Shown here: positions 3,210 to 50,729 of the stretch, piece by piece
How positions within the stretch are numbered: the first letter of the stretch is position 1
Layout: each line of letters starts with the position of its first letter
Origin: Blastochloris viridis
Lineage (GTDB): Bacteria; Pseudomonadota; Alphaproteobacteria; UBA2136; UBA6156
NCBI GenBank assembly: GCA_005768725.1
Contig: VAFM01000002.1
Location: 276,486-340,485, forward strand
Length of the DNA stretch: 64,000 nucleotides
Reading direction: 5' to 3'
Position numbers and translations under genes: made by a program
The notes under the pieces: model-generated
What the model saw: the letters and a program-made list of their open reading frames with translations, nothing else
The model's database searches: none
What the model was told of the DNA's origin: nothing

Positions 3210-3824
3210 CTACTCGGCATCATCGTCTTCCGGCTTGGCTTCTTCACCGATGGTCACGGCTTTGGCACCACAGGCCGAGCACGCATCCAGCAGGTCCTGC
3301 CAGGCTTCCAGCGGAGCAGTCCCCATATCGGCCATAATCAGGGTCACGCCGTCCTTGGTCTCGGGGTCGCCTAGGTAGTGAACCACTTCCTGAACCTGAC
3401 CTTCCAGCTCTTCCGGCTCGGCAAACCAGCGCCAGAACCACTGTTGCAGCGGTTCAAAGCTCACGTCGTTCTTCAGGCCTTCCATGCGTACCGGCATCAT
3501 GTCCCAGCCAAACGGATAAACCTTTACCTGCATTCCGCTGTCCCAGGTCACGTCAATGCCGCCATCGAACTTGAAAACGCCTTCCGCGGCCACCTGAACA
3601 GGCTCCACGTCTTCTTTGCCGTCTTCCACGCGCTTGGCCAGCAGGTCAACGCGGGCAGGCAGCTTTAAAACACCTTCCAGCGCCACTTCACCCTTGTCGT
3701 CACGGAAAGCGGGTTCAAACATCACCTCGGCACCTTCGGCCTCAAGGTCTTCGGCCGTGGCGGTCAGGTGGTCAATGTAATCCTGCCGGATCATCTCCAG
3801 CAAATCGCCCAACGTCATGGTCAT
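3210..3824 (-). CDS. Hypothetical acidic protein (about 204 aa, from internal Met)
   Basis: Long ORF; start set at internal MTMTLGDLL Met with GAAAGAG RBS; no recognisable domain. Confidence 0.5.
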   Translation of the reverse strand: MTMTLGDLLEMIRQDYIDHLTATAEDLEAEGAEVMFEPAFRDDKGEVALEGVLKLPARVDLLAKRVEDGKEDVEPVQVAAEGVFKFDGGIDVTWDSGMQVKVYPFGWDMMPVRMEGLKNDVSFEPLQQWFWRWFAEPEELEGQVQEVVHYLGDPETKDGVTLIMADMGTAPLEAWQDLLDACSACGAKAVTIGEEAKPEDDDAE

Positions 3825-3986
3825 GACATACTCTTTCGTTCGTTTCGCTAACTGCTTACCATCAAAACGCACGGGAAGCCAGCGTTGCCTCCCATTCCAA
3901 AAAGTTCCTGCGTTTGATAAATTCCGGCACGTAGTGCCGTTGCCCACACATACACGAGAATTAACGAAGCGCCGCAGGAGAATGCT

Positions 3987-7011: not shown

Positions 7012-8262
7012 TTAATTCGCAAAGCGCAGCAACTTCGCCATCTGCCCGGCCAACTGCGCAATTTTGCTATCCGTCACGCGCACGCGGCTCTGCTGGGCGG
7101 CCTGACGCGCACCATAAATCAGCAAGCCAACCGGAGTCGCAAAACCCGGCGTACCGGAAAGATCAGTAAGACCCTGCACGCCAACCGGACGCGCCAGACG
7201 CACACTCTTGTCCAGCACCACTTCGGCCAGATTCCGCAGACCATTCAACTGGCTGGCACCACCGGTCAGCACCACGCGGCGGCCAATAGCGGCTTCAAAC
7301 CCGCTCTGCTCAATCTTGTCACGCACCAGCTCCAGCATTTCTTCGCAACGCGGCTGGATGATTCCGGCCAAGGCACTCTTGGTCATGTGGGTCGCTTCGG
7401 CCTTCACGGTCTGGTTGTCGTCACCAACGCTCGGCACTTCAAATTCATCATCGCTTACAATGGTGCTCGCCATGGCATGGCCATGCAGAACCTTGATACG
7501 CTCGGCCGCTGTCAGCGGAGTGGAAAGCCCACGCGCAATGTCAGCGGTAATATGCTGGCCACCCAGCGGAATCACAGCGGTGTAAACAAGCGCACCTTCG
7601 GCATAAATGGCCAGATCAATGGTCCCACCACCAATATCCACCAGCGCCACACCCAACTCACGCTCATCCGGCACCACGGTGGCCAGTGCGCTGGCGTAAG
7701 GCTGTACCACAATGTCCAGCACTTCCAGGTTTGCACGCTCCACGCAACGCACTACGTTACGGATAGCCGAGGTCGCGGCGGTAATAATATGAACGTCCGC
7801 TTCAAGACGGCTGCCGGTCATGCCGCGCGGATCACGAATGTCGCTCTGGTTATCCAGCACATACTTGGTCGCTTGGGCATGGATGATCTGACGGTCGTCA
7901 CCGATCTGACGGGCACGCGCTACATCAATAACTTTAAAGATGTCGGCATCGGTAATGTCCTGCTTGTTCAGCACCACCAGACCATCGGTCATGTGGCTAC
8001 GCAGGTGCACACCACCCAGGCTCACAATCACACCCTGAATCTCCACACCGGCCATATCTTCAGCCGCGTGTACGGCTTCGCGAATCGCCGTTTCGGTACG
8101 ATCCATATCCACAATCATGCCGCGTTTCAGACCGGTAGAGATATGCTGACCGTAACCCAGCACATGCGGGTTAAAGAACTCATCCAGCTCGGCAATAAAG
8201 CAGGCCACCTTGCTGCTGCCGATGTCCAGTCCTGCCACGATGCGGTTACGGGTTTTTACCAT
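7012..8262 (-). CDS. ftsA: Cell division protein FtsA
   Basis: Actin-like ATPase, N-terminal VAGLDIGSSKV motif, 416 aa; AGGACTAAGG RBS. Confidence 0.92.
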   Translation of the reverse strand: MVKTRNRIVAGLDIGSSKVACFIAELDEFFNPHVLGYGQHISTGLKRGMIVDMDRTETAIREAVHAAEDMAGVEIQGVIVSLGGVHLRSHMTDGLVVLNKQDITDADIFKVIDVARARQIGDDRQIIHAQATKYVLDNQSDIRDPRGMTGSRLEADVHIITAATSAIRNVVRCVERANLEVLDIVVQPYASALATVVPDERELGVALVDIGGGTIDLAIYAEGALVYTAVIPLGGQHITADIARGLSTPLTAAERIKVLHGHAMASTIVSDDEFEVPSVGDDNQTVKAEATHMTKSALAGIIQPRCEEMLELVRDKIEQSGFEAAIGRRVVLTGGASQLNGLRNLAEVVLDKSVRLARPVGVQGLTDLSGTPGFATPVGLLIYGARQAAQQSRVRVTDSKIAQLAGQMAKLLRFAN

Positions 8263-35461: not shown

Positions 35462-36457
35462 TTATCCAACCCGTTCCAGCGTCCGCAAAATCGCACTCCG
35501 CGCACGCGGGTTTACGTCAATCTCCGCATCACTCGGCACGATCTTCTTCCCCATCTTGAACTTGGCCGGGGTCTTGACGCGACCGATCTCATCCAGCTCA
35601 TCCAGACACAACCGGCGGAACGCCGCCTTCACCGCACGCTCTTCCAGCGGCTGGAACGAAATCACCGCCAGCACGCCACCCTTTTTCAAACACCACGCCG
35701 CATCCGGCAGCGCGCGCTCCAGCACGGCCAGTTCATCATTCACGGCCACACGCAGGGCCTGAAAAATACGCGCCGCCGGGTGGGCACGCTTCAGGCCTAA
35801 CTTAGGCGGATACACCTGCTCCACCGCCGCCAATAAATCTTTGGTGGTCTCAAACGGCTGAGCCTTGCGCTGCTTGACGATCAGACGCGCCAGCACACGG
35901 CTCTTCGGCTCTTCACCGTACACATAAAAGATATCGGCCAATTCTTCCTCGCGGGAGGTGTTCAGCACGTCCGCAGCGGTCTTTTTCATGCTGCTGTTGA
36001 GGCGCATATCCAGCGGCCCCTCAAAATGATAACTCAAGCCGCGCTGAGGGTCGTCCAGTTGGTCGCTACTGAACCCAAGGTCGAGCAGAATCCCATCGGC
36101 CAGCGGGGGTAACGCGCCCACTTTGCGCTTGCCGCAGGTCACGCTGTTTTGCAGTACCGGTCCGGCCAATACTTCGGGAATGGTATCGTAGGCGGCACGT
36201 ACCAGGTGCACACGGTCGCCAAAGGTTTCCACCAGCGGCGCACAGCGCACTAATGCACGGCTGTCCCAGTCCAGTCCCACCACTTCGGCCCCGCGCTCCA
36301 GCAGGCCACGGGTGTGCCCACCACCGCCCAAAGTACCATCCACCAGCAGTTTTCCGGCGGCAGGTTCAAGGGCATCCATCACTTCATGGAACAGCACAGG
36401 GACGTGCACCGTCTCGGCCGTACCGCGCGTTTCTAGCAAAGTGGAATCCCCATTCAT
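35462..36457 (-). CDS. rsmH: 16S rRNA (cytosine1402-N4)-methyltransferase RsmH (MraW)
   Basis: SAM-binding TLGGGGH motif, 331 aa, downstream of mraZ. Confidence 0.9.
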   Translation of the reverse strand: MNGDSTLLETRGTAETVHVPVLFHEVMDALEPAAGKLLVDGTLGGGGHTRGLLERGAEVVGLDWDSRALVRCAPLVETFGDRVHLVRAAYDTIPEVLAGPVLQNSVTCGKRKVGALPPLADGILLDLGFSSDQLDDPQRGLSYHFEGPLDMRLNSSMKKTAADVLNTSREEELADIFYVYGEEPKSRVLARLIVKQRKAQPFETTKDLLAAVEQVYPPKLGLKRAHPAARIFQALRVAVNDELAVLERALPDAAWCLKKGGVLAVISFQPLEERAVKAAFRRLCLDELDEIGRVKTPAKFKMGKKIVPSDAEIDVNPRARSAILRTLERVG

Positions 36458-36633: not shown

Positions 36634-37110
36634 TTATTTCCAGAGTCCGTCCATAACGGCGAAGTCTTCCGCCGTTAATTGGCCGTCATCCTGCATCTGG
36701 GCTTCATAACGCTGCGGGTTCCAGATGGTGAAATATTCCCCCTGACCGGCGAACATGATCTCTTCGCCAAGGCCGGCTTTTTCCGCCAGGTCCGCTGGCA
36801 GCATCACGCGGCCGGCATCATCGAAGTTTAGTGGCCGAGCAGCTGCAAGAATGGCCCGCGCCAGTCGTTGGCGTACCGGGCTGAGTGCCGGAAGTTGCTG
36901 AATTTTTTCAGCCAGTTTGAGAAAGTCATCGTAAGCCCAGCCATATAAGTATCCTCCATTGCTTCCTGCATCCGGCGCCGCGTACACCACAACTTGCTGT
37001 CGGGTATGCGCGGCCATTTCATGACGGAACGACGCCGGCACCGAAACACGGCCCTTCTTGTCCACGTTATTCACGTAAGAGGACAAGAAGACGGTCATCG
37101 GGGCAGTCAT
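36634..37110 (-). CDS. mraZ: Transcriptional regulator MraZ
   Basis: Two MraZ repeats (DKKGRVSVP.., DDAGRVMLP..); start at MTAPMTVF (alternative 37098); track ORF extends to 37254. Confidence 0.85.
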   Translation of the reverse strand: MTAPMTVFLSSYVNNVDKKGRVSVPASFRHEMAAHTRQQVVVYAAPDAGSNGGYLYGWAYDDFLKLAEKIQQLPALSPVRQRLARAILAAARPLNFDDAGRVMLPADLAEKAGLGEEIMFAGQGEYFTIWNPQRYEAQMQDDGQLTAEDFAVMDGLWK

Positions 37111-37263
37111 CCTTCCGTTGTGGCGCCGCATCGTGCGTTGCCGGTTAATTTCGTGGCCGGGGTCGCCCAGTACTCGCGTACTCTCCGGCCTTGGTCCCTC
37201 GTAGGCGGTCCCCCATGAACCGCCCGCTCCCTTGGAACCTTTTGGATCACCCATGGTTGTATT

Positions 37264-37494: not shown

Positions 37495-37498
37495 GCAC

Positions 37499-38020
37499 CT
37501 GCACGGGGTCACCGCGAGCCGCAAGGTTCGAGGAAAGTCCGGGCACCCACGGGCCACCGGCCGGAGAATATCCGGGCTGGCGACTCCCGCCAGACCAACA
37601 GGGCCACAGAAAAGAACCACCCCAGCAATGGGGAACGGGTGAAAAGGTAGGGTAAAAGCCTACCGCCGTTTCTAGCAATAGAGCGGGCGAGAGTAGGTTC
37701 CAGAATCGCTAGGCAGAGGTGATTTTTGAGATTTGCAAAGACTGAGCACCGTAAGTGTACACGCGAGTACACGCGGAGCGGAAGGCAAGCAAAGCTCAAA
37801 AAGCGCTCTGCATAGTAGATTCTGGAGCCTACTCGAAGGTAACCTGCCGGAGGGTGCAATGCTAAATAGGGACTCCCAGTGGCGCGGTCCGCGTCCGAAG
37901 CGCAAGCCGAGGAGGGTCCGGGTTGGCAGCTTGACGCCTGACGCAAGTCAGCGCGCAGATGAATGGTGACCGATCCCGCAAGGGAGAACAGAACCCGGCT
38001 TATACGTGCAGCAGGAGACT
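37499..38020 (+). ncRNA. rnpB: RNase P RNA (bacterial type A) with about 127-nt repeat-element insertion in helix P12
   Basis: P4 core AGGAAAGTCCGGGC (37531-37544), 3' core ACAGAACCCGGCTTATACG, P1/P2 complementarity (ggtcacc/ggtgacc); terminator hairpin follows. Confidence 0.78.
37699..37825 (+). repeat. Structured repeat element, copy 1 (diverged), inserted at the tip of rnpB P12
   Basis: ccagaatcgctaggcagag..gcaccgtaagtgtacacgcgagtacacgcggagcg..tagtagattctgg; homologous to copies at 38098 and 41420. Confidence 0.7.
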
Positions 38021-38047
38021 ATGGGGCCCTCGGGCCCCATCTTTGTT
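38021..38047 (+). terminator. Rho-independent terminator after rnpB
   Basis: atggggccc-tc-gggccccat then ctttgttt. Confidence 0.65.
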
Positions 38048-38097
38048 TAAGATATTAGAGGGGAATCCGTCCGCCATAAGGCGGGCGTTTGTTTAGA

Positions 38098-38236
38098 CTC
38101 CGGAACTCGCTGGCAGCGAGGGATTTTTGATTTTCTCCGCTGATGCTAGCACCGTAAGTGTACAAGGTCGGTACATGCGGAGCGCAGCATCAAGGAAAAA
38201 TCAAAAAGCACCGCTGTCCAGTAGAGTTCGGTTCCT
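38098..38236 (+). repeat. Structured repeat element, copy 2 (about 138 nt, long imperfect hairpin with terminal inverted repeats ccggaactc / gagttcgg)
   Basis: ccggaactcgctggcagcgagggatttttgattttctccgctgatgctagcaccgtaagtgtacaaggtcggtacatgcggagcgcagcatcaaggaaaaatcaaaaagcaccgctgtccagtagagttcgg. Confidence 0.7.
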
Positions 38237-38242
38237 TAGGAT

Positions 38243-38818
38243 TTATCGCAACCAGTCCCAACTGAAGTGCACGCCCGGATCCGTCTTCCGCCCCGGCGCC
38301 ACTTCATTATGCCCAAGCACACGCTCGGAGGTGATATGCGGATTCCGCGCTAGAATATCCGCCACCAGTTCTTTGAGCGCGAGATACTGCGCTTCGGTAT
38401 AAGGCTCGGCCCGCGTCCAGCCTACCAGAGTTTCTTGCTCCACACTGGGCGGCCCGTCCAAAAACGGCCCACAGTTGGCCACTTCAATCCCCAGGCTCCA
38501 GTTATTAAGCCCGTTAACCTCCGCACCATCGCTTTTCACGGCACGGCTCACACCGGCATGGAAGGCCACCAGACGCTCCGGCACGAGCTGAATGACCTCA
38601 CCCTCACGGGTAATATAATAATGACAACTCACCTCGGCCACAGGGTCGCACAGGCGCTGCAAGGCGCCGTCGTCCCCCGCCATCCACGTGCCATGTATGA
38701 TCACGAATTCCAGTCGCTCACCCGCGTTGCGCGTGCGGTAGTTAGGGCTGGGCAATACGCGGTCAACCAGAGCCGAGTCCGCCGTGAACACCGGCACAGC
38801 CGTCGCTACATCGGCCAC
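38243..38818 (-). CDS. ampD: N-acetylmuramoyl-L-alanine amidase, AmpD-like (Amidase_2 family)
   Basis: Zn-ligand and catalytic motifs (IIHGTW.., HNEVAPGRKTDPG), 191 aa. Confidence 0.8.
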   Translation of the reverse strand: MADVATAVPVFTADSALVDRVLPSPNYRTRNAGERLEFVIIHGTWMAGDDGALQRLCDPVAEVSCHYYITREGEVIQLVPERLVAFHAGVSRAVKSDGAEVNGLNNWSLGIEVANCGPFLDGPPSVEQETLVGWTRAEPYTEAQYLALKELVADILARNPHITSERVLGHNEVAPGRKTDPGVHFSWDWLR

Positions 38819-41307: not shown

Positions 41308-41419
41308 GGGGTAGTATCCTTCTTGTATGCCGCCACTCTAAGCGCAAAAAAAAAGCGGCACCAGAGGCACCGCGGAAAATTAACAAGAGACCGTGGGATA
41401 ATCGCACAAACAGGTTCGG

Positions 41420-41554
41420 CCCCGGAACTCGCTGAGCGCGAGGGATTTTTTGTTTTCTCCGCAGAGACGAGCACCGCAAGTGTACGAGGTTGTACATGCG
41501 GAGCGCAGGAACAAGGAAAAACAAAAAAGCACCGCGCTCAGTAGAGTTCGGTGC
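41420..41554 (+). repeat. Structured repeat element, copy 3, between fumC and flgE
   Basis: ccggaactcgctgagcgcgagggattttttgttttctccgcagagacgagcaccgcaagtgtacgaggttgtacatgcggagcgcaggaacaaggaaaaacaaaaaagcaccgcgctcagtagagttcgg. Confidence 0.7.
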
Positions 41555-41571
41555 TTTGAGAGAGGATGCTA

Positions 41572-47490: not shown

Positions 47491-47693
47491 GGCGCAAGGC
47501 ATGCGCAAAACGCATAGCTCTCCCGGCGCCAACCGCGCATGAAATACCCATGCGCGGAAGCCCCTGCGCACGGAGCTAGAAACCTTTATTCTGGGGTGAT
47601 GAGGCAAACCGACGTGTACAGATACGTACACGAGGATTGACGAAGCGCCACAGAGAAAGGTTTTAGCCCGCGCCTTTCAACACCGCCTACGCC

Positions 47694-50600
47694 CTAAAGG
47701 GCGGGCGGCGGTAGCAACTCCATGTACTTCATTTTATCGTTGTACTCTTGCTGCTCTTCACGCTGCTGCGCAATCTCCGCTCTCCGCACCTGCACCCTGT
47801 CCGTCAACCGGTTCAGATCACTCAGCGCCACAGTCACCGGCGCTAAAGGCCCAGTACTGGCCAGGCTGGCACTGATGCCGGTACTCGCCGCCACAGCACC
47901 TAACCCATCACCCAATACCGGCAGACGGTTCATCACATCGGCATAGCGCACGGTCAAAGCATCCAGCTTGGTGGCATCGCGCAGTTCGCCGTACACATAA
48001 CCCAGCCGGAAGGCCGCCACCTGAGCGCCACGGTCGCCTACCATTGCCGCCGGAGTGACGCCCTCTAAACGGGCTTCCAGCAACGGTACAATCGTTTTCC
48101 AGTCCTTGGCCATCCACGCCGCTTCGATGCGCAGATCACGTATCGCAGCGTCGTCGTTGGGCATTTTGGCGAGGGCCTTTTGCACGGCTTGCGGGCGCTT
48201 CAGGCGCAGCAGCAGGTCGGCTTCCACCAGTTTCCATTCCCGCGCCAGCACCTGCGTATTCGCGGCATGCTGCCATTTATCGATGATCTTAATGCCTTCG
48301 GCCGCCTTGCCCATGTTGCCGTAGGCTTCGGCCAGCATGAGAGAGAGCCGCGCCTGCGTCGGCATATCCAGCGGACGGAACTTGAGCTGCGATTCGAGAA
48401 TCGGCACGGCTCGTGCCCACAGGTTGGCATCGATCAACAGACGCGCCACATGTTCATGGATCAGATCACCGCGCGCATCATGTGGCACCAGTTCACTGAA
48501 GTCATAATACAGCCCCACGTATTCCAGCGGATCATACGTATGCGGGTTTTCGGGGTCGAACACATGCACGAACGCATCCCCCATCTTTTCGGTCACCTGA
48601 CGTAAGTTTGGCGAACGCGGGAACGCTTTCACCAGCGTCTGCCAGTACTGCAGCGCCATGCGCGAGTCACCGGTCTTGGCGTACATGTCGCCCAGCATGT
48701 ACAGCACGTCCTGTTCCAGATCATCCCCGCGCCAGTCGAACCACAGGTCACGCAGGTAGCTGATCACCTGCTCATCACTCAGATCACGGCGCTGGTACAG
48801 CGCCCTCACAAACTCAAACTTGGCACGGTAGGCGGTCTTCGGGTCGCGCATATCCTCGGCGGCAGCGGCCAAATACTCCAATCCCTCCGACTCCTCTGGC
48901 GTCCCCAAACGCACCAGCCCGCGCAGGCGGTTCAGCGCTGCCGGTACATCCTTGGGGTCATGGTAGCCCTTAATAAGTTCTTCCAGAACCGCCTTACCAG
49001 CCTTGCGGTTACCACTCATCACCAGCGCGCTGGCCTGGGCTTCCTGCGCCATCTCACGCATATAGGCCGGGTACTTCGGCAGAATCCCACGCTCCTCCGG
49101 CCACAGTTTCAGCGCAGTGGCATAATCCCCTAAGCGGCTGGCAGCCACCGCACGCCACAGCTTGCCATCAGCGCCTAGTGGACCACCCTGATCGAACAGT
49201 TTCGCATCCGGCACTTCATCCCGCGCCAGCATCGCCACACCCATCAGCAAACGCGCAGCAGGGCTGGCGGGCAGTTTATCTTCGCGCACCGGCAACTCCC
49301 GCAATACCGCAAGCGCCTCTTCCGGACGGTCCCAGTTGAGGTACACCGCCGCCATATTCATCTGTTCGGCACGTTCCTGCGCACTGTCGGCCGGGCGCTC
49401 GGCAATGGCCCGCAACGCCGCCAGAGAATCACTCACGTACGACTTCCCGCGCACCGGGAACAATCCCTCCACCATCCGTGCCGGAACATCCGGAATCGGC
49501 TCCACCGCCGCCATATCAGGAATCTTTACATCCAGCCGCCCTTCGCGGGCTTTTTCTTCATCAATTTTACGCTGCTTTTCAGCTTCCAGAGAGGCTTTCA
49601 CCGGCTCCAGTGTCACCTGATTCCAGGTACCCGAAACCTTGCTCGGCGTCACATCAGAACTGGCGGTCACCGTCTCGTCACCATGCGCCTCCGCCCCCAC
49701 GTCCGGGGTTTCCGCAGGCGGTTCGGCCGAATGCGCGGCTAACACCTCTCCGGCAGCCTCAACCCCATGCGTATCAGCGGCGTGGGTGTCCGAAACCGTC
49801 GTCACGTCCCTTTTTTTTTCCTGATCCACCAGCGGGGTGCCCAGCCCGCTCATGCCCTTGGGCAGGGTCAGGCTGACTAGCGTGCCCGGCACATACACCT
49901 TGCCCAGCACGCGCGGCAGCAGTTCGCTTTCCACTTCTTCCAAAGCCATGGGCCGCATCGAAGGCGCCGGGTGCACACTCACCTTGGCTAAACCGCTCTG
50001 CGCCACGGCCGCTTCCACAGCGGTGGCCGAAGGTTTGCTCGGCAGGCTCGGCGGTGCCTTTACAGCCACCTCGTCCACCTTGGTCCCGCGCGTCATCACA
50101 TCGCCTACATTTACAGCCTGCAACGGCGCCTTGGCCGCAGGCGTTTCACCTGTCGTTGCCGCCGCCGTGGTCGTCTTGGCGGGCACTGGTTCATCACCCG
50201 CCGCAGGGTTTACTGCAGCGGCAGAAACACGCCCCGCAGCCCCCATGCGCACACCACCCACCACACTGCCCAGCATACTCACCGGGCGCTCCGCCAGCGC
50301 GACCTGCCAATCTTTTCCAAACGCGCGCAGGCTTTGCGGACGCAGCGTTTCGTTCCCCGCCAGCCAGCTGTCATTCAGCATTACGGCGCTCTCGCTTTTC
50401 AGCGCGGTGCCCGGGCGCACCAGCCAGTTAGTCCCGTCCTGCACCACTTTCCAGCTGCTTTCCACACCGCGTACCAGCACCGCCTGCAAACCGTTGTCGG
50501 TCGTCCGCTGTACATTCACGGTGGCAGGCAAGGTACCGATTTTTACTTCACCACCCGCGGGCACCACTACAATCAAACCATCCACACTCGGGCGCCATGC

Positions 50601-50729
50601 CGCCATGCGTGCCGCTTCCGCACGTATCAGTAATTTTCCGTCCACGGCATCAATCTGCAGGCCCGGTGCCGCCCATACAGCCGTTGGCACCACCAGTACC
50701 GCCGCTACGTGCATCGCAAATGTCCGCAT
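47694..50729 (-). CDS. Large periplasmic TPR-repeat protein (1011 aa) co-transcribed with motB-like genes and cheA
   Basis: Signal peptide, Ala/Pro/Thr-rich linker, C-terminal half rich in TPR-like helical repeats; start overlaps upstream gene stop (TGATG). Confidence 0.65.
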   Translation of the reverse strand: MRTFAMHVAAVLVVPTAVWAAPGLQIDAVDGKLLIRAEAARMAAWRPSVDGLIVVVPAGGEVKIGTLPATVNVQRTTDNGLQAVLVRGVESSWKVVQDGTNWLVRPGTALKSESAVMLNDSWLAGNETLRPQSLRAFGKDWQVALAERPVSMLGSVVGGVRMGAAGRVSAAAVNPAAGDEPVPAKTTTAAATTGETPAAKAPLQAVNVGDVMTRGTKVDEVAVKAPPSLPSKPSATAVEAAVAQSGLAKVSVHPAPSMRPMALEEVESELLPRVLGKVYVPGTLVSLTLPKGMSGLGTPLVDQEKKRDVTTVSDTHAADTHGVEAAGEVLAAHSAEPPAETPDVGAEAHGDETVTASSDVTPSKVSGTWNQVTLEPVKASLEAEKQRKIDEEKAREGRLDVKIPDMAAVEPIPDVPARMVEGLFPVRGKSYVSDSLAALRAIAERPADSAQERAEQMNMAAVYLNWDRPEEALAVLRELPVREDKLPASPAARLLMGVAMLARDEVPDAKLFDQGGPLGADGKLWRAVAASRLGDYATALKLWPEERGILPKYPAYMREMAQEAQASALVMSGNRKAGKAVLEELIKGYHDPKDVPAALNRLRGLVRLGTPEESEGLEYLAAAAEDMRDPKTAYRAKFEFVRALYQRRDLSDEQVISYLRDLWFDWRGDDLEQDVLYMLGDMYAKTGDSRMALQYWQTLVKAFPRSPNLRQVTEKMGDAFVHVFDPENPHTYDPLEYVGLYYDFSELVPHDARGDLIHEHVARLLIDANLWARAVPILESQLKFRPLDMPTQARLSLMLAEAYGNMGKAAEGIKIIDKWQHAANTQVLAREWKLVEADLLLRLKRPQAVQKALAKMPNDDAAIRDLRIEAAWMAKDWKTIVPLLEARLEGVTPAAMVGDRGAQVAAFRLGYVYGELRDATKLDALTVRYADVMNRLPVLGDGLGAVAASTGISASLASTGPLAPVTVALSDLNRLTDRVQVRRAEIAQQREEQQEYNDKMKYMELLPPPAL

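Follow-up and report, generated by a model that had tools for sequence, protein, structure and literature searches.

A palindromic intergenic repeat as putative expansion helix beside P14 of an alphaproteobacterial RNase P RNA

The RNase P RNA gene (rnpB) within a 64,000-nt stretch of DNA from a metagenome-assembled alphaproteobacterial genome (hereafter the window) contains an extra arm, here named P14.1, which follows P14 and precedes the 3' strand of P11. The arm is homologous to a palindromic repeat that is dispersed in intergenic regions, and this repeat has probably been co-opted as a tolerated expansion helix, that is, as an autonomous arm which is transcribed together with the ribozyme and kept helical. 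RNase P RNA is a textbook ribozyme whose enlargement by additional helices is, as a rule, inferred for events dating back billions of years. In the lineage described here, helix addition can be observed among close relatives, which possess no helix, a short stub or a 144-nt arm derived from an identifiable selfish repeat and subsequently maintained as a helix through compensatory evolution.

When the complete window was scanned against Rfam, rnpB matched RF00010 with 166.6 bits (gathering threshold 100, E 5.9e-52) over model positions 1–367 of 367, while no second match at gathering level besides RNase P was found in the window. Both P4 strands (GAGGAAAGUCCGGGC and ACAGAACCCGGCUUA), which are invariant across 10 orthologues, are found in the gene, as are the type A hallmarks P13 and P14 and the GCAA loops on P14 and P18 (Table 1). 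Thus, the identification of rnpB in the original prediction, which had been made from the sequence alone and had given a length of about 522 nt, was correct. Likewise, the roughly 130 nt of additional sequence it had reported correspond to an excess of about 135 nt over the 384–388 nt of rnpB in relatives lacking the extra helix.

For comparison, ten further complete rnpB genes were collected from syntenic loci (referred to by numbers such as L053), which were fetched via homologues of RsmH, and from locus L001. The relatives of the window RsmH are metagenome-assembled genomes (MAGs) of unclassified Alphaproteobacteria. RsmH of the window itself is identical to TKW60679.1, deposited as 'MAG: Blastochloris viridis'; since the window has a GC content of about 58% and all close relatives are unclassified alphaproteobacterial MAGs, this species name is probably a mislabel. 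In an alignment of 10 complete rnpB genes (L065 was fetched later and left out), 39 of the 101 pairs of the core fold are changed on both sides. P13 alternates between GGTAGG/CCTACC and GGTGGG/CCCACC, and five covarying states are seen among the orthologues for the P6 pseudoknot, which joins the L17 loop to J5/7 (GGGCC/GGTCC, GGACC/GGTCC, AAGCC/GGCTT, ATGCC/GGCAT and AGGCC/GGTCT). Covariation of the core including the P6 pseudoknot indicates that rnpB is functional, with or without the arm, that its core is under selection and that the gene is no artefact.

The position of the arm was derived from the covariance-model alignment and from the relatives. In the cmscan alignment, 168 nt follow P13 in the window versus 21 nt in the RF00010 consensus. 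Downstream of the P11 5' strand, cmscan places three hairpins, the first being ACC-ACCCCA-GCAA-UGGGG and the second GGUAGG-GUAAAAG-CCUACC. According to PMC4919922, RNase P helices are numbered in 5'-to-3' order and P13 and P14 form a separate stack; due to this numbering, the first hairpin is P12, the second P13, and the insert belongs to the P14 region. The insert-free gene of L056 reads P13-GCCAUCUUCA-GUAA-UGAGAUGGGC-UA-AGUAACCUGCC, the window P13-GCCGUUUCUA-GCAA-UAGAGCGGGC-GA-[144 nt]-GA-AGGUAACCUGCC, and it follows from this comparison that P14 is intact and retains its GNRA loop. The GNRA tetraloops L14 and L18 both serve in docking into P8 (PMC9433436, PMC4264200). That the hairpin 5' of the insert is a small hairpin belonging to the repeat and not P14 was considered and rejected, because insert-free relatives share this P14; that of L057, with insert, is identical to that of L060, without insert.

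Accordingly, the placement of the insert at the tip of P12 in the original prediction has to be revised. The covariance model locates P12 elsewhere, yet the extra sequence lies inside the RNA, and the alignment with insert-free relatives shows that it follows P14 and not P12. The insert is also less peripheral than a P12 tip would be, as it sits at the junction leading into P11. The P11 pairing itself is recovered by RNAalifold on 10 rnpB genes (columns 121–126 with 377–384). P14.1 ends 3 nt short of the P11 3' strand, a region with a conserved AA bulge which we take to be part of the recognition region for the T-arm of tRNA; neutrality of the arm is therefore not obvious. Being a central junction of the substrate-binding domain and not a known variable helix tip, the site makes P14.1 a test of junction tolerance. 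For annotation it is instructive that covariance models silently absorb such inserts into the nearest hairpin.

The predicted fold of P14.1 is a single long hairpin of −88.5 kcal/mol (z −9.45; −86.3 kcal/mol when folded jointly with P14), in which the bottom 17 bp are uninterrupted and bulges are few. Altogether, the comparisons indicate that P14.1 forms an additional arm where P11, P12, P13 and P14 meet, in the centre of the specificity domain.

Table 1. Features of the rnpB region and copies of the repeat (positions in the window).
Feature	Position	Strand	Basis or remark
rsmH	35462-36457	-	same side of rnpB as mraZ
mraZ	36634-37254	-	gene on one side of rnpB
rnpB, bacterial type A RNase P RNA, 523 nt	37496-38018	+	Rfam RF00010 match
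P12, short hairpin with GCAA loop	37617-37638	+	cmscan structure line; alignment of 10 rnpB genes
P13 (GGUAGG GUAAAAG CCUACC)	37646-37664	+	cmscan; pairs covary
P14, intact, GNRA (GCAA) tetraloop L14	37665-37688	+	homologous to P14 of insert-free L056, L060, L063 and L065
GA dinucleotides flanking P14.1	37689-37690 and 37835-37836	+	
Extra helix P14.1, 144 nt, predicted ~57 bp	37691-37834	+	fold, repeat profile, covariance model R1, covariation
Lower stem of P14.1, 8 bp, outside the repeat	37691-37698 with 37827-37834	+	
Repeat-derived part of P14.1	37697-37827 (profile) or 37694-37829 (covariance model)	+	
P11 3' strand (GGU AA CCU), pairs with 37600-37605	37838-37845	+	RNAalifold on 10 rnpB genes; cmscan
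Intrinsic terminator of rnpB	38021-38050	+	terminator scan (38021-38040); kept in all relatives (alignments)
Second terminator-like hairpin with TTTGTTT, just 5' of repeat copy 1	38066-38094	+	terminator scan; relatives
Intergenic repeat copy 1, in the spacer separating rnpB from the amidase gene	38095-38235	+	R1, 135.2 bits
Amidase_2 gene, convergent with rnpB	38243-38818	-	gene on the other side of rnpB
Intergenic repeat copy 2, upstream of fumC, lying between stop codon and terminator of flgE	41417-41555	+	R1, 148.7 bits
Possible decayed fourth copy, long hairpin with GTGTAC-N6-GTACAC apex	47558-47679	+	weak; R1, 21 bits, E 0.057; z -6.0

Homology of the arm to the dispersed repeats was assessed with a profile of six intergenic copies taken from other organisms, which contained neither window nor rnpB sequence and thus avoided circularity. 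This profile matches the insert over its full length (E 6.4e-20), within two nucleotides at either end of the segment (37699-37825) that had been taken for a diverged repeat copy at the outset. A covariance model of the repeat (R1) scores P14.1 with 135 bits, and BLAST alignments with the two intergenic copies of the window show 75–79% identity over the central 63–71 nt. The similarity is far above chance, and the insert is thus homologous to the intergenic repeats. Both intergenic copies, originally noted near 38098 and 41420, were recovered (Table 1); they are 85% identical to each other and adopt the same predicted fold. The neighbours of copy 2, flgE and fumC, are both encoded on the minus strand. 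The weakly scoring hairpin of about 120 nt at 47558 is also intergenic and adjoins a 1011-aa open reading frame on the minus strand (47694-50729). All copies, starting at 37694, 38095, 41417 and 47558, are on the plus strand of the window, and GC skew is negative (C > G on the plus strand) in 31 of 32 2-kb intervals. The strand bias of the copies could reflect strand-specific insertion, although with three or four copies it is not significant.

Across the loci analysed, the family comprises 15 copies detected by R1, three of them within the 64-kb window. A metagenome scan with the conserved apex pattern returned seven loci, none of them in rnpB, and the family is thus rare in the sampled data. 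The element is an imperfect palindrome of about 135–140 nt with terminal inverted repeats (YCCGGAAYTCGCTG ... CAGTAGARTTCGG), a hypervariable stem, conserved arms (GATTTTTGA/TCAAAAAGC) and a conserved apex (GAGCACCGYAAGTGTAC-N6-GTACATGCGGAGCGC). Among 14 copies, 24 of 40 predicted pairs of the hairpin are changed on both sides, and the motif AGTAGA is conserved in 12 as a bulge inside the 3' arm. Every copy outside rnpB is intergenic, and five of ten intergenic copies sit 9–13 nt past a terminator-like GNRA hairpin on the same strand.

The element is polymorphic for presence at orthologous intergenic sites. L001, L056, L057 and L060 lack copy 1 as well as the small hairpin at 38066-38094 in front of it, and rnpB and the amidase gene are separated there by about 30 nt. 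Copy 2 has an orthologue in L001 (1259-1396), and the corresponding spacer is empty in L056, L057, L060 and L061. It is by such presence and absence, and hence indirectly, that the repeat can be called mobile. Of the mobile structured element originally proposed, the structured repeat inside a functional gene is borne out by homology, outgroup absence, recurrence in four assemblies and covariation. No consistent flanking direct repeat indicative of target-site duplication was seen in the repeat flanks, and comparison of filled with empty sites gave no empty-site junction defining the movement, the flanks being too diverged in both cases to give exact ends. Furthermore, no transposase for the repeat was found among the loci analysed, which amount to about 300 kb of related sequence. 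The repeat matches no Rfam family (on 38020-38260 all matches were at chance level, E at least 0.014 and far under the gathering scores), is absent from a plasmid collection searched by BLAST, and neither apex subtype occurred in viral contigs scanned for the exact patterns; plasmids or phages are therefore not evident carriers. Taken together, these features suggest a previously undescribed, REP/MITE-like family, newly defined here for an uncultured alphaproteobacterial lineage.

Several features of the repeat neighbourhoods were recorded in addition. At five loci (38066-38094 of the window, L048, L049, L050 and L051), the repeat is preceded on its own strand, at a distance of 9–13 nt, by a small GC-rich hairpin whose loop has 4 nt (GCAA, GCGA or ATAA) and which is followed by a T-run. 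This hairpin may belong to the mobile unit or be a target that the element prefers. At 1931-2068 and 2073-2169 of L051, repeat and 3' end of an SRP RNA gene abut in convergent orientation, 5 nt apart, and at 3710-3848 and 3869-3940 of L048 the same is observed for a tRNA gene at a distance of 21 nt.

The relatives display the site in three states (Table 2). In L056, L060, L063 and L065, P14 is followed by 2 nt and then by P11. L053, L064 and L055 carry stubs at the same site as the long helix, those of L053 and L064 within the same GA...GA frame. The long helix itself is found at the same place in four independent assemblies from different samples, namely those of the window, of L001 (JAIXQG01), of L057 (ERZ21742350) and of L061. 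Since the outgroups as well as L056 and L060 are devoid of the helix, its absence is ancestral and the helix was gained within the ingroup.

Table 2. State of the P14.1 site in relatives of the window.
Locus	RsmH identity to window	State of the site
L001	89%	long repeat-derived helix
L053	83%	25-nt GCAA-capped stub
L055	83%	~45-nt GCAA-capped stub
L064	81%	~42-nt GCAA-capped stub
L056	79%	no helix
L060	78%	no helix
L057	76%	long repeat-derived helix
L061	76%	long repeat-derived helix
L063 (outgroup)	66%	no helix: P14, 2 nt, P11
L065 (outgroup)	63%	no helix

Once gained, the long helix has persisted with covariation. Among the four long-form orthologues, 18 of 57 consensus pairs are changed on both sides and only three cells are broken. 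At the apex, the compensatory states GTGTAC/GTACAC, ATGTAC/GTACAT and GCGTAC/GTACGT are found. Family motifs decay while pairing is kept, as exemplified by the change from AGTAGA to AGGGAA in the rnpB copy of L057. Decay of the motifs in combination with persistent pairing suggests that selection acts on the helicity of the arm and not on the sequence signals of the repeat.

On this basis, the following course of events is proposed. A palindromic intergenic repeat of about 135–140 nt would have entered rnpB directly 3' of P14. The arm would be transcribed along with the ribozyme and fold by itself into a helix of about 57 bp projecting from the P11/P12/P13/P14 junction. Because the hairpin is self-contained within its GA...GA frame, it would leave the core helices, the GNRA loops L14 and L18, the P4 and P6 pseudoknots and the junction sequences undisturbed, and the enzyme would keep working. 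Selection might then mainly keep the arm stable and unable to mispair with the core, which would account for both the compensatory substitutions and the decay of family motifs. In some lineages, the arm is represented by a GNRA-capped stub of 25–45 nt or is missing. In the proposed course, the arm is presumably retained in the mature RNA and nearly neutral, and a dispersed copy is the presumed route of the DNA into rnpB. Empty, stub and long forms provide natural constructs for work on folding and kinetics.

With respect to the number of gains, the rnpB tree clusters the window with L001 and L053 (12 diagnostic columns) and L057 and L061 with L056, L060 and L064, with the result that the long form occurs in two clades with short or empty forms between them. 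Given this patchy distribution, a single gain requires several losses; otherwise, two gains have to be assumed. The alignments tend to favour a single gain. The junction, the GA...GA frame and an otherwise hypervariable stem (CTAGGCWGAGGYG...CWGCATAG) are common to all four rnpB copies, and orthology of these copies is favoured for this reason. Two independent insertions into the loop of a pre-existing L053-like GNRA-capped stub, one in the window/L001 clade and one in the L057/L061 clade, are a possibility to be taken seriously but the less probable one. They would agree with the distribution of the long form, with the 12 columns uniting window, L001 and L053 as compared to one covarying pair uniting the long forms, with the complete repeat termini in rnpB, and with the 8-bp lower stem, which matches the whole stub stem of L053 (GAGAGTAGGT versus GAGAGGAGAT). 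Each rnpB copy also agrees with its clade in apex subtype; however, the subfamily structure is drawn from few sampled copies per genome. As a cause of two insertions, a preference for sites about 10 nt downstream of GC-rich GNRA hairpins, one of which P14 resembles, is conceivable, and the location of half of the intergenic copies behind such hairpins is in line with it. The apex adds a complication, since the rnpB copies of L057 and L061 share their apex (GCAGCGCAGCGTAC...GTACGTGAGCAGCGCAGGGC) with the decayed intergenic copy of L056 (13615-13737). Simple vertical descent fails to explain this pattern because the apex sequence tracks the clade and not the locus; concerted evolution between copies could be the cause. 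In a quite unlikely scenario, an element targeting hairpins would insert about 10 nt past GC-rich GNRA stem-loops with P14 as a mimic, and its duplex would be excised by RNase III to leave a two-piece RNase P RNA; repeated hits in rnpB, or continued exchange with dispersed copies, would then explain why the apex subtype tracks the clade. A mosaic or recombination linking the long-insert alleles was dropped, since one covarying P6 pair unites them versus 12 columns for window, L001 and L053.

As the main rival to a retained arm, excision also has to be weighed on its own. As an intervening sequence, the arm would be cut out by RNase III or another nuclease specific for double-stranded RNA, and the two pieces of RNase P RNA would be held together by the pairing of P1–P11. 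M1 RNA reconstituted from fragments is active, and intervening sequences of alphaproteobacterial 23S rRNA are excised by RNase III. Moreover, a duplex of about 57 bp as regular as the predicted one might serve as a substrate, and pairing selected along the full length is also expected of a processing stem. However, the short GNRA-capped stubs of the relatives resemble ordinary retained helices, and a naturally split RNase P RNA has, to our knowledge, not been reported from any bacterium; excision is regarded as unlikely. The reverse direction of copying, with the long helix as an rnpB expansion of native origin from which the dispersed copies were derived, could draw on the L056 copy mentioned above, which resembles rnpB-type copies in its central ~70 nt. 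It is nevertheless very improbable: outgroups and several ingroup genomes have no helix, intergenic copies keep AGTAGA and GAGCACCGYAAGTGTAC, motifs that have decayed in rnpB of L057 and L061, and none of the intergenic copies is accompanied by flanking rnpB sequence. Finally, the insert might be an assembly chimera, or rnpB a pseudogene no longer making the enzyme, considering that the window originates from a metagenome-assembled genome and that repeats break related assemblies beside rnpB (L002/L053, L058 and L059). An assembly artefact was rejected on the grounds that four independent assemblies show the same architecture with compensatory substitutions within the insert, and a pseudogene is hardly reconcilable with a core and two pseudoknots that are conserved or covarying and with the full-length covariance-model match; this explanation can practically be dismissed. 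Co-option of the repeat as a tolerated expansion helix remains the preferred reading.

Repeats inside rnpB and lineage-specific helices of RNase P RNA are already known. Heterocyst-forming cyanobacteria carry STRR (short tandemly repeated repetitive) sequences within rnpB (Vioque 1997, Nucleic Acids Res 25:3471, cited in PMC2858038). As in the window, a genome-wide repeat family inside rnpB lengthens a helix of the specificity domain and the RNA stays type A. However, the STRR sequences, which reportedly lengthen P12 of cyanobacterial rnpB, are tandem heptanucleotide repeats, whereas the insert of the window is one palindromic unit of about 140 nt and not tandem. Furthermore, P14.1 appears as a new helix after P14, by which a four-way junction becomes a five-way junction, while P12 of the window is short and unaffected. 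Expansion helices such as P5.1, P10.1, P15.1 and P18.0 (PMC12974513) resemble P14.1 in being independent new helices on an unchanged core at a junction. In contrast to these helices, which are old, characteristic of whole clades and of unknown source, P14.1 is recent, polymorphic and derived from an identifiable repeat family. The bacterial expansions known so far are distal to the tRNA interface (PMC12974513), whereas P14.1 adjoins P11.

Like the repeat described here, REP, BIME and REPIN sequences and MITEs (e.g. ERIC, Correia/NEMIS, RUP and the Rickettsia palindromic elements; PMC10969869) are short, non-coding, dispersed and mostly intergenic palindromes, which fold into hairpins, are often near terminators and vary in presence at orthologous sites. 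With MITEs the repeat shares terminal inverted repeats and several dispersed copies, whereas it differs from REP sequences in that its GTAG motif is a bulge of the 3' arm and is not located at the 5' end. The Rickettsia palindromic elements, too, enter functional genes that survive the insertion; their hosts, however, are protein-coding genes and not a ribozyme gene. The intervening sequences of 23S rRNA are also hairpins of about 100–150 nt in an essential RNA gene, variable among relatives and tolerated as self-contained stems. They differ in that their excision by RNase III, leading to fragmented rRNA, is known, while that of the rnpB arm is hypothetical, and in that they have not been traced to a dispersed repeat family. 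Among the papers searched, no description of an extra helix after P14 or of a MITE in rnpB was found. New are the site after P14 beside P11, the nature of the element as one long palindrome from a family not described before, and the graded series of empty, stub and long forms in close relatives.

Some further observations concern related assemblies and neighbouring non-coding DNA. In a number of related assemblies (L002/L053, which belong to the same MAG, UBA6156, and L058, L059 and L062), contigs end no more than a few hundred bases from rnpB, that of L059 exactly after P13. Repeats may thus fragment assemblies, and rnpB genes with an insert may be under-represented in MAGs. In L055, the spacer between flgE and fumC orthologous to that of copy 2 contains a shorter, near-perfect hairpin (1490-1600; apex GTGTAC-N10-GTACAT, z −6.7); as the rnpB helix is shrunken there too, elements may shrink in parallel in this lineage. 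A distinct repeat with ~75-nt units (...GCGAAAGCGAGGCCGAAGGCCGTAGCGAAGCC...ACGCGAAGCGTAAAT) is present in L002 (4520-4798), where it occurs twice in tandem 3' of the amidase gene and is fused to the 3' arm of the palindromic repeat, and downstream of rnpB in L061 (~7540-7640). L064 (1394-1625) and L061 (~7560-7810) also have in common a non-coding stretch of about 200 nt 3' of rnpB, which is absent from the window; it contains the motifs ...CAGCGCUCCRGCGC... and ...GGGGGAURGGAUU... and may represent a small RNA or a regulatory region.
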